IMG/VR virus record: IMGVR_UViG_2534681674_000022
Span: 1-20,098 of that record
Reading direction: 5' to 3' (one strand)
Origin: a virus
Taxonomy: Duplodnaviria; Heunggongvirae; Uroviricota; Caudoviricetes
DNA length: 20,098 bases
Part shown: piece after piece, positions 8,907 to 11,640 of the stretch
How the letters are laid out: each line of letters starts with the position of its first letter
How positions within the stretch are numbered: the stretch's first letter is position 1
The notes under the pieces: model-generated
What the model saw: the letters and a program-made list of their open reading frames with translations, nothing else
Told to the model about the DNA's origin: nothing
The model's database searches: none
Program-made: the position numbers and the translations under genes

Positions 8907-8932
8907 AGCCGGGTTACTCCCGGCTTTTTTTC
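8907..8932 (+). terminator. Intrinsic terminator on the plus strand
   Basis: AGCCGGG-ttact-CCCGGCT followed by TTTTTTT. Confidence 0.55.
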
Positions 8933-9215
8933 ACCGCTGCCAACCAATAACCTGAAATAACCCCATTTTCGGGTGATACCAGCGAGTCCCTCGCGGTTCT
9001 GCTTCCTCCATAACCCGATAAAAAGCAGCCATAAACGGTTCCACAGCAACAATTGCGCGACGTGACAACAATCCGTCCGGCGTCATGAACTCATGGGTGT
9101 CTGTAGGAATTTGATAGGCGTTCACCAGATTGCGGCATTTATCATCTGACAAACCGGTTTTTGCTTTCAGTTAGCGTCATTGAAACAGTTTCTCATGGTC
9201 ATTGATGGAGAAGGT

Positions 9216-9617
9216 ATGAAGGATAGGATCGTCGAAATACTACAATACACCCTGAAAAAAGATTCTGGATCTGACTTTCATCAGATCATGCATGAAGTCA
9301 GTGTTCCACTTCATACCCGGAACGGTATCGATGTGGTTGCGTACGGAAACTCTCTGCAGGATGCTGACAGCTACTACCTCATACGGGCTTTTGAAAGTGA
9401 AGAACAGATGAAAAGCGTTCTTGATGATTTCTATGCGAGTGCGGGTTGGCGCAGTGGCCCACGAGAAGCAATCATCAGTCGAATTGAAGTAAGCCTTAAG
9501 TCAGTATTGACGCTTCCGCAAAATGCTGTGAATGAGTTGAGGAAAAAAAATGACAAGAACAGAAATAGTAAAGGCAGTGAACCGCCCCGGTTTTCCTGGA
9601 GAGTGTTTTATCTGTGA
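9216..9617 (+). CDS. Hypothetical small protein with its 3' end replaced by IS629 sequence
   Basis: ATG at 9216 preceded by GGAGAAGG. From 9578 the reading frame continues into the IS end (last 13 codons are IS-derived). Confidence 0.4.
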   Translation: MKDRIVEILQYTLKKDSGSDFHQIMHEVSVPLHTRNGIDVVAYGNSLQDADSYYLIRAFESEEQMKSVLDDFYASAGWRSGPREAIISRIEVSLKSVLTLPQNAVNELRKKNDKNRNSKGSEPPRFSWRVFYL

Positions 9618-9619
9618 AC

Positions 9620-10507
9620 TCAGGCTGCCAGATCATCGTTTCTGATGGAAGCATAATAAGCTTTTTCTGCTTCTGCCGGAGGGATATGACCCAGCCTTCC
9701 CAGCAATCGTCGATTGTTATACCAGTCCACCCACGTGAGTGTGGCCAGTTCCACTTCTGCACGGTTTTTCCAGCTCTTACGGTGTATTACCTCCGCTTTG
9801 TAAAGACCATTGATGCTCTCCGCCATCGCGTTGTCATACGAGTCACCTGTACTCCCTGTTGATGCCAGCAGTTTTGCTTCTTTTAGTCGCTCCGTATAGG
9901 CCAGTGATACATACTGAGAACCTTTATCACTGTGATGGACTGTGCCGGACGGCCGACGGGCCCACAACGCCTGCTCCAGTGCATCCAGCACGAATGTCGT
10001 TTCCATAGACGATGAGACTCGCCACCCCACGATACATCCGGCAAACACATCAATGATGAACGCCACATAGACGAAGCCCTGCCATGTGCTGACGTAAGTA
10101 AAATCAGCCACCCACAGCTGGTCAGGACGTTCTGCCACGAACTGACGGTTTACGCGGTCGCCTGCGGAAACGGCTTTCCGGCTGACGGTAGTACGGACCT
10201 TTTTACCCCGGAGAACACCGGCAAGTCCCATAACCGCCATGAGGCGCGCCACTGTACATCTGGCCACCCTGATACCTTCGCGTAACAACTGGCGCCAGAC
10301 TTTACGCACACCGTACACCTGATGATTTTCATCGTATACGCGCTGTATCTCTCTCTTCAGCCAGTCATCGCGCTGAGCACGGGCACTGCGTTTATCAGGA
10401 TGATGTCGCTGTTGCTGACAGTGGTAATACGTTGACGGGGCAATATGCAGTTCACTGCATACCGGTCCGACCCCGTACTGCTCACGCAGCTTATCCAGCA
10501 GCGGCAT
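9620..10507 (-). CDS. IS629 OrfB, 295 aa, intact
   Basis: Full-length DDE transposase ORF in the -1 frame relative to OrfA. Confidence 0.9.
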   Translation of the reverse strand: MPLLDKLREQYGVGPVCSELHIAPSTYYHCQQQRHHPDKRSARAQRDDWLKREIQRVYDENHQVYGVRKVWRQLLREGIRVARCTVARLMAVMGLAGVLRGKKVRTTVSRKAVSAGDRVNRQFVAERPDQLWVADFTYVSTWQGFVYVAFIIDVFAGCIVGWRVSSSMETTFVLDALEQALWARRPSGTVHHSDKGSQYVSLAYTERLKEAKLLASTGSTGDSYDNAMAESINGLYKAEVIHRKSWKNRAEVELATLTWVDWYNNRRLLGRLGHIPPAEAEKAYYASIRNDDLAA

Positions 10508-10833
10508 TATTTTTTCCAGAGGCGGTCGAACTCCGCCTTCGCAAAATAAGCGGAAGCCTGGCGAAGGATATCGTTACTGCGGCGCAGTTCACGATTTTCA
10601 CGTTCCAGCTCTTTCAGACGCTGACGTTCAGCGGTGGTGAGTCCACCATCACCACTCCCGGTATCCCGCTCATGCTGACGAACCCACACACGCAGAGTCT
10701 CTGGTGTACAGCCAATCTTTGGGGCAATGGAACAAATTGCCGCCCATTGTGAGTCATATTCGCCCTGACTTTCCAGAACCATACGAACTGCCCGTTGACG
10801 GACCTCGGGGGAAAAACGTGTATTTTTAGTCAT
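10507..10833 (-). CDS. IS629 OrfA, 108 aa, intact
   Basis: Identical translation to OrfA of copy 2. Confidence 0.9.
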
Positions 10834-11043
10834 CCTGTTTACCTCTTTCTCAGGGAGTTTAGTCTCCAGGATTCCCGGGGCGGTTCAGTTGTCAATCTGT
10901 TTGGCAGAAGGTGAGGGAGTTCCTGGTTACTGTACGAATTGCGTACAATTGATGGGTATTGTTGATGCACCTAGTTCTTGTATTGTTTACTATAATTATT
11001 GAGGTAAATTTTCGTGCCTGTATTACTCAGAGGGGATTCAAAA

Positions 11044-11640
11044 ATGGCTGTAATTCCAATGTCTTACTCCCCTGCTACTGTAGCTCGTCGTTTTTCGATA
11101 CTGGATGGAGTAACTATTCAGGGCGTGCTTTACCAGATCATCTGGGATCCAAAGACTCCGTTCGCTGCGGTAATCGAAGCTGCACCTTCTGTTATTGATG
11201 GTGATATTCGCCATAAAGTTGTTGCCACTCTGGAGCTTCAGCGTCGCTCACAGCTTGAAGGGGTGTTTGTCCGGAAATTCTGGGAAGAGCAGGACGTCGC
11301 TCAGATTGAAGGGATTGTTGTTGATGGGGCTGTACGTGATGTTGGCCTTGCGACGTTTGTATATGAAACGGTAGCCACAAAAGCGGGCGTTATACTATTA
11401 AGTGATAACGAGCAATATGAAGGAGGTAAAGCCCTCTGGCAGCATATAGCGCGTCGTTCAACGAATCTGAAAGTGTTTATTTTAGATACTGATTCCGCAC
11501 GGTATTATCCGTTTGATGGCGATCGGATCTGCTATGACGGGGAAAGTATTCCTGAATCAGAAATCTGGAGTGAACATCCTGATCGAAATAAACACGGTGT
11601 TGTTCTTGTGGCCGAATCTGTTAATGGAAAAGCCGCATAA
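11044..11640 (+). CDS. Hypothetical protein, 198 aa, unknown function
   Basis: ATG at 11044 with AGGGGA ribosome-binding site 7 nt upstream; a perfect TATAAT at 10991-10996. No recognisable motif; RDVGLA could be a GNAT-like motif A but this is weak. Confidence 0.45.
   Translation: MAVIPMSYSPATVARRFSILDGVTIQGVLYQIIWDPKTPFAAVIEAAPSVIDGDIRHKVVATLELQRRSQLEGVFVRKFWEEQDVAQIEGIVVDGAVRDVGLATFVYETVATKAGVILLSDNEQYEGGKALWQHIARRSTNLKVFILDTDSARYYPFDGDRICYDGESIPESEIWSEHPDRNKHGVVLVAESVNGKAA

Follow-up and report, generated by a model that had tools for sequence, protein, structure and literature searches.

The third of four IS629 copies in the window (the whole stretch of DNA that we analyzed, 20,098 nucleotides) lacks a target-site duplication, most likely because an initially normal insertion was followed by a one-sided, nonreciprocal deletion of about 5 kb beside the IRL end of the element. 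We consider this account probable rather than secure. The window corresponds to bases 1-20098 of an 801-kb draft contig (AEZJ02000017.1, assembly GCA_000194215.2; identified by exact protein matches) from a Shiga-toxin E. coli genome. To the left of this element, which we call copy 3, lies a degraded lambdoid prophage (PerC, a SASA esterase, three tRNAs, an AraC-like regulator, Ash, and an ORF named for NIPSNAP). To the right lies an SpLE1-like integrative element (ORFs of 198 and 568 amino acids, AlpA, YfjI, a YfjJ-like gene, and iee).

Copy 3 is a complete IS629 without a target-site duplication

The features at and around copy 3 are as follows. L001 and L002 are loci of 2013C-4974, the closest complete relative by flank identity (an O5:H9 ST342 EHEC); L027, L028, and L029 are long contigs from sister strains.

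9216-9617, plus strand: small prophage ORF with the RefSeq name NIPSNAP family protein (alternative start at 9180); compared with the L002 CDS at 10317-10685
9550-9577, plus strand: 5' stub of the DUF6387 gene, 28 nt; the L002 CDS at 10651-11082 aligns as far as the junction, and the remainder is missing
9575-9577: CAG, the kept copy of the original 3-bp target duplication; its partner, the reverse complement of IRL joined to CAGTGACTAAATGG, is in L027, L028, and L029
9578-10887, minus strand: complete IS629 copy 3 (IS3 family), 1310 bp, from end alignments and inverted-repeat pairs I1, I2, and I10
9578-9602: terminal inverted repeat IRR, TGAACCGCCCCGGTTTTCCTGGAGA, abutting the prophage flank
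9620-10507, minus strand: orfB of IS629, 295 amino acids, the DDE transposase part; matches NF033516 (IS3 family transposase) with 312 bits
10436-10552, minus strand: ALIL pseudoknot, the programmed -1 frameshift signal between orfA and orfB; matches Rfam RF01497 with 120.9 bits
10507-10833, minus strand: orfA of IS629, 108 amino acids, from the ORF list; matches the N-terminal part of NF033516
10863-10887: terminal inverted repeat IRL, the reverse complement of TGAACCGCCCCGGGAATCCTGGAGA, intact and abutting the integrase remnant
10888-10890: GTT, the secondary joint and putative distal end of the deletion, and the first triplet of the retained integrase tail
10888-10914, plus strand: tail of the tyrosine integrase gene of the SpLE1-like island, its last 27 nt (8 codons and the stop of a 438-amino-acid protein)

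Copy 3 is a bona fide IS629, because it has orfA and orfB, a match to the IS3-family transposase, the ALIL pseudoknot, and 99.6% identity over 1310 nt to the element that is annotated as IS629 in phage JLK-2012. It resembles the described IS629 (isoforms IS1203 and IS1203v, from EHEC and Shigella) in its length of 1310 bp, its repeats that begin with TGAACCGCCCC, its orfA/orfB organization, and its -1 frameshift with ALIL. Its imperfect 25-bp terminal repeats agree with each other at 22 positions (pair I10). Identity is 95.6% both to the annotated IS629 of VT2-Sakai and to IS1203v. By the subtypes defined in PMC3271280, copy 3 belongs to the O55:H7/Shigella-like subtype, unlike the Sakai O157 copies.

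We set the ends of copy 3 by aligning the ends of the IS copies within the window. At these ends the flanks are CAG (9575-9577) and GTT (10888-10890), with no direct repeat of 3 or 4 bp, as the preliminary description had reported. That description also allowed that ends misplaced by a few bases might hide a duplication, and moving the boundaries by up to 6 nt did not bring out a genuine one. The only repeat that appeared was CAG/CAGT (9575-9578 and 10886-10889), and for it to be flanking sequence, the last bases of the IS itself (T at one end, CA at the other) would have to be counted as flank; with this many shifts, chance alone would give about 0.7 matching 4-mers. We excluded it as a true duplication: copies that do have duplications define the IS ends as TGAACC...GGTTCA (copy 2, with GTT/GTT, and the copy in the integrase of 2013C-4974, with TGG/TGG), and it is also contradicted by the uninterrupted sites of relatives, in which ...GGCAG is followed by TGACTAA and ...AATAAT by GTTGTC. 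The native triplet just past the left break is TGA, which is also how the IS begins, so the left break can be placed no more finely than 9577-9580. Copies 2 and 3 differ at just two positions, too few for a mosaic check to reveal a recombinant IS.

IS629 typically yields duplications of 3-4 bp. Copy 2 and the reconstructed ancestral insertion at CAG conform to this, and copy 3 as it now stands does not. Rump et al. found duplications of 3-4 bp at 21 of 47 IS629 sites in four O157 genomes and none at the other 26 (PMC3271280).

The left junction

2013C-4974 and OkiPb01713 have prophage DNA that matches the left flank at 100% identity and is uninterrupted, with ...AAAGGCAG running directly into TGACTAAATGG. 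The insertion site lies where the small prophage ORF overlaps the DUF6387 gene. The preliminary description had proposed a search for partner junctions, and for the CAG flank the partner was found: L027, L028, and L029 all have the complementary half-junction, GGCGGTTCA joined to CAGTGACTAAATGG (that is, the reverse complement of IRL followed by CAG and TGACTAAATGG), and it is also where many draft contigs stop. L028 additionally has IRR joined to CTGCCTTTAC, which is the reverse complement of the left junction in the window. The left junction is thus what a one-sided deletion would leave, a simple-insertion junction whose other half persists in relatives, with both halves present in L028. Since the missing half-junction is present in sister strains, the comparison shows that the left junction is that of the original insertion and that copy 3 first inserted normally, with a CAG duplication. 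The left junction of the window and ypjCB are both present in BvCmsKSP099, which counts against the deletion proposed below.

The right junction and the position of the island

On the right, the intact IRL end is joined directly to GTTGTCAATC..., the last 27 nt of the 438-amino-acid island integrase gene. Position 10888 of the window aligns to position 8203 of L001, where the integrase CDS ends at 8229. The uninterrupted integrase sequence, AATAAT followed by GTTGTCAATC, occurs at 15 loci. Judged from these alignments, the right junction is a secondary event. Among the Logan run assemblies, at least 24 have the junction between the reverse complement of IRL and GTT, as do at least 9 NCBI assemblies; neither the left nor the right junction of the window is present in 5426 complete E. 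coli genomes.

The island occupies different places in different relatives. In 2013C-4974 and OkiPb01713 it is at ileX, beside nfeF, 0.56-0.58 Mb from the prophage. In L027 it is at ileY, immediately past ypjCB and on the same strand, with the integrase 5.3 kb downstream. At least 23 complete genomes have this adjacency of ypjCB and the integrase, with the island at ileY. The new flank of copy 3 is therefore nearby and on the same strand in L027 (5335 bp between the two points) but not in 2013C-4974 or OkiPb01713. Relative to glaH, the block from ebgA through nfeF to the island has opposite orientations in OkiPb01713 (L005 and L003) and 2013C-4974 (L001 and L002); therefore, one of these relatives has undergone a large chromosomal inversion, one end of which lies in the island or close to it.

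IS629 has repeatedly inserted into the island integrase gene. The same GTT is hit, in the opposite orientation, in SRR13081126 (L021). There is also a copy at a TGG site with a duplication (2013C-4974, L001) and one at another site (L007). In UTME-3 (L046), an IS629 lies in the integrase 7 bp downstream of the GTT, without a duplication; this was the one apparent match to a junction between the integrase and IRL in the complete genomes, and with the 7-bp offset it is not a junction at GTT.

A probable deletion beside the IRL end

Copy 3 inserted with a 3-bp CAG duplication into the degraded lambdoid prophage, beside ypjCB and ileY. In the account that we favor, the ancestor had the SpLE1-like element at ileY, on the same strand and about 4 kb further downstream. 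The DNA adjacent to IRL would later have been lost, which would have brought the IRL terminus up against GTT in the integrase gene of that element, with 27 nt left before the stop codon.

This second step is reconstructed from sister strain L027, which shares with the window the right junction of copy 1, both junctions of copy 2, and the insertion at the CAG site. Its order is IS, CAG-DUF6387, ypjCB, att, integrase, and then the same island, at 99.98% identity. Removing positions 9999-15333 of L027 (5335 bp) reproduces the joint in the window base for base, so a single IS-adjacent deletion of 5335 bp suffices. The lost segment, so measured in the coordinates of L027, would have held DUF6387 from codon 10, a remnant of the ypjA autotransporter gene, ypjCB, the tRNA-Ile att half-site, and integrase codons 1-430. 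L027 itself is not the ancestor; it has undergone an inversion of its own and has lost 938 bp. We found no full-flank match to DUF6387 or ypjCB on the 801-kb source contig, a result that is weakened by differences in gene calling. We infer that these genes and the body of the integrase are absent from the source genome.

The event looks nonreciprocal. None of the 5426 complete E. coli genomes has the integrase, up to GTT, joined to IRR. The integrase protein of 431 amino acids that such a junction would encode (...TGNNV, with its stop codon from the TGA of the IS) was found in just one contig (SRR13081126) among about 15 billion proteins, and there the gene is joined to IRL, not IRR. These negative results come from exact-sequence look-ups, in which a single changed residue would be enough to hide an integrase. 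Partial ORFs at contig edges are missing from the protein-cluster index (a 46-amino-acid control was absent), so its negatives are uninformative for such products.

At the joint there is no microhomology: the bases before the break are TTCA versus TAAT, and those after it are CAGT versus GTTG. The joint thus looks as if it was made by the transposase rather than by microhomology-mediated end joining. The most likely route, as read from the joint, would be that the IS629 transposase carried out an aberrant strand transfer within the same molecule, in which the IRL end attacked a nearby target; the resolution may have been aided by the IS-excision enhancer, IEE. We favor this route because the IS end is exact, the microhomology is zero, and the same GTT was targeted in another strain. 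Homologous recombination with a directly repeated IS629 at GTT, since lost, would give the same product.

Alternatives to the proposed deletion

The preliminary description had attributed the missing duplication to recombination, inversion, or adjacent deletion after insertion. The evidence supports an IS-associated event and, among these, favors the deletion over an inversion, although our choice between the two is reached by inference. The main rival, a reciprocal inversion of about 0.43-0.58 Mb, is unlikely in our view. It would have exchanged flanks by homologous recombination between two inverted IS629 copies, one in the prophage near ileY, at CAG, and the other at GTT in the integrase of an island at ileX. 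The geometry is the required one in 2013C-4974, where the two flanks are 0.58 Mb apart on opposite strands; OkiPb01713 attests to large inversions around the island region in this group; and L027 and L028 give a demonstrated case of recombination between inverted copies, namely 2 and 3. If the source strain resembled 2013C-4974 and OkiPb01713 in having the island at ileX, then the deletion is impossible and an inversion is needed. However, an inversion also predicts a second chimeric IS, with the integrase ending in ...AATAATGTT joined to TGAACCGCCCCGGTTTTCC at one end and GGCGGTTCA joined to CAGTGACTAAATGG at the other. As the IS starts with TGA, every genome of the lineage would then retain a complete integrase ORF of 431 amino acids. 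The partner that encodes this ORF, the integrase up to GTT joined to IRR, was not found in the 33 or more assemblies that have the right junction of the window, and the sole 431-amino-acid case is joined to IRL, which an inversion cannot yield. The full chimeric copy (integrase-GTT joined to IRR, with the reverse complement of IRL joined to CAG-DUF6387 at its other end) was found in 0 complete genomes, none of which has an IS629 at GTT in the needed orientation either, and the only contig with a truncated integrase has IRL. Also, a simpler one-step route is available from the arrangement in L027. We rejected an inversion with copy 1, 2, or 4 of the window as the partner, as their flanking triplets are incompatible.

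The contig of SRR13081126 raises another question, since the same GTT is joined to IRL on both sides: in the window, the reverse complement of IRL is joined to the GTT tail, and in SRR13081126, the integrase up to GTT is joined to IRL. This might reflect transposition with two IRL ends (a composite or an IS dimer) that brought a prophage fragment of 8 kb into the island, or else a sharp hot spot for IS629 at the 3' end of the SpLE1 integrase gene; we think that either is very unlikely. In its specific form, in which the segment bounded by the inverted copies 1 (or 2) and 3 moved into GTT as a unit with their IRL ends outward, the two members of a GTT duplication would enclose the entire block, the left one falling outside the contig, before its first base. 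The contig start does cut copy 1, which hides its outer flank in the source strain. Nevertheless, in the relatives L028 and L029 that outer flank consists of prophage sequence and shows the matching GTA duplication, copy 2 lies in prophage DNA between the two members of a separate GTT duplication, and the integrase-GTT junction to IRL is known from one sample versus at least 24 samples with the junction of the window. Two-IRL-end transposition is also not the usual reaction of the IS3 family, and we give this form hardly any credence. An assembly artefact seems just as far-fetched. It would have wrongly joined two IS629 copies, each with its own duplication, across the 1.3-kb repeat. The linkage of CAG, IS, and GTT across this repeat is known from one draft assembly (AEZJ02000017.1), a contig that itself begins inside an IS629, and every other assembly breaks within the IS. 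But the same contig separates four IS copies with individual sequence differences, and even if the linkage were wrong, the junction of IRL to the GTT tail would still lack a partner: the integrase-GTT junction to IRR was found nowhere that we searched.

Genes at the two joints

According to the preliminary description, the plus-strand ORF ending at 9617 takes its last codons from the IS and is truncated. It does end inside the IS, with an AGT codon that straddles the junction, then 12 full IS codons and a stop. "Truncated" overstates the change, though: the ORF loses one codon, and its product lengthens from 122 amino acids in the native form (WP_096859246.1) to 133 in the window, as the final codon (Asp) and the stop are replaced by 12 IS-encoded residues. 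A profile search gave this ORF, in spite of its NIPSNAP name, no Pfam or NCBIfam match of its own. On the alignments to relatives, the genes that are really destroyed at copy 3 are the overlapping DUF6387 gene and the integrase gene of the SpLE1-like island. Because only 27 nt of the integrase gene remain, the island is unable to excise via its own integrase.

Other IS629 copies and the surrounding prophage

The other three copies in the window are as follows.

1-1229: IS629 copy 1, cut by the start of the contig
2576-3884: IS629 copy 2, 1309 bp, with a clean GTT/GTT duplication
19703-20098: IS629 copy 4, which starts at 19703 and is cut by the end of the window

Copy 2 has a 1-bp deletion at IS position 1004 that shortens orfB to 239 amino acids, so copy 2 is probably nonautonomous, to go by its reading frame. 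At exactly this left position, 2013C-4974 has an IS629 of a different subtype that points the other way. The segment of 5.7 kb between copies 2 and 3 is flipped in two sister strains (3933-9998 of L027 and 2836-9998 of L028, compared with 2576-9737 of the window), and this flip demonstrably arose by homologous recombination between these inverted copies. The 938-bp deletion in L027 is beside the IRR end and has CAG/CAG microhomology, unlike the right joint in the window. Fragments of IS ends adjoin a full copy in L028 (160 nt) and L029 (102 nt).

Copy 4, flanked by CAT and AGC, is likewise without a duplication. It replaces 5.1 kb of the Sakai SpLE1, from the 3' end of iee through ISEc8 and IS600 to the 5' part of traT. 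The iee ORF (17518-19728, 737 codons) is identical at 729 of 731 positions to Sakai ECs_1305, the IS-excision enhancer, which promotes IS629 excision; copy 4 truncates it at codon 729 of 786. The junction of copy 4 was not found in 2013C-4974, where the IS is 48 nt further on and of another subtype. One-sided losses like the one at copy 3 recur nearby, at copy 4 and in the events of L027 and L029.

Within the prophage, the SASA/DUF6645 esterase (4042-5891) has 616 amino acids in relatives and is split here into ORFs of 157 and 455 amino acids, which is probably a pseudogene, going by these lengths. ARAGORN identified three tRNA genes at 6972-7223 (Arg-TCT, Arg-TCG, and Met-CAT). In relatives, RefSeq annotates the tRNA with the CAT anticodon as tRNA-Ile (the lysidine-type tRNA-Ile2).

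Relation to known IS629 rearrangements

According to a later bioRxiv review (10.1101/2023.06.07.543989), Kusumoto et al. 2011 (PMID 21224843) described deletions beside IS629 in EHEC that depend on both IEE and the transposase. The event at copy 3 resembles the IS629-adjacent deletions of EHEC in that one IS end keeps its original flank and the DNA beside the other end is lost. It is also alike in its setting, a prophage or integrative element with iee on the same island. It differs from the IEE-type deletions in that the joint has no microhomology and the IS is wholly retained. Since iee is truncated by another IS629, any role of IEE must predate that insertion. Work by Ooka and colleagues in Genome Research in 2009 reportedly covers IS629-adjacent genomic deletions, or IEE-promoted deletions, in EHEC. 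"Sloppy" transfers have also been described for IS629. In EHEC chromosomes, inverted IS or prophage repeats can recombine homologously and produce inversions (e.g., PMC7430833); these likewise give chimeric flanks, but the reciprocal of the right junction of copy 3 was not found.

Overall, the event at copy 3 is real but ordinary, of a known kind, and mechanistically it offers nothing new. If transposition with two IRL ends or a hot spot were the true explanation, it would have occurred in a strain whose iee was itself disrupted by IS629. The right junction marks a lineage (at least 33 assemblies) and can be used in annotation and strain typing. The event fused an SpLE1-like island to a degraded prophage. 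It would also have removed the integrase from this island, which bears iee, urease genes, and an eptA-like gene, and this loss probably fixes the island in place.
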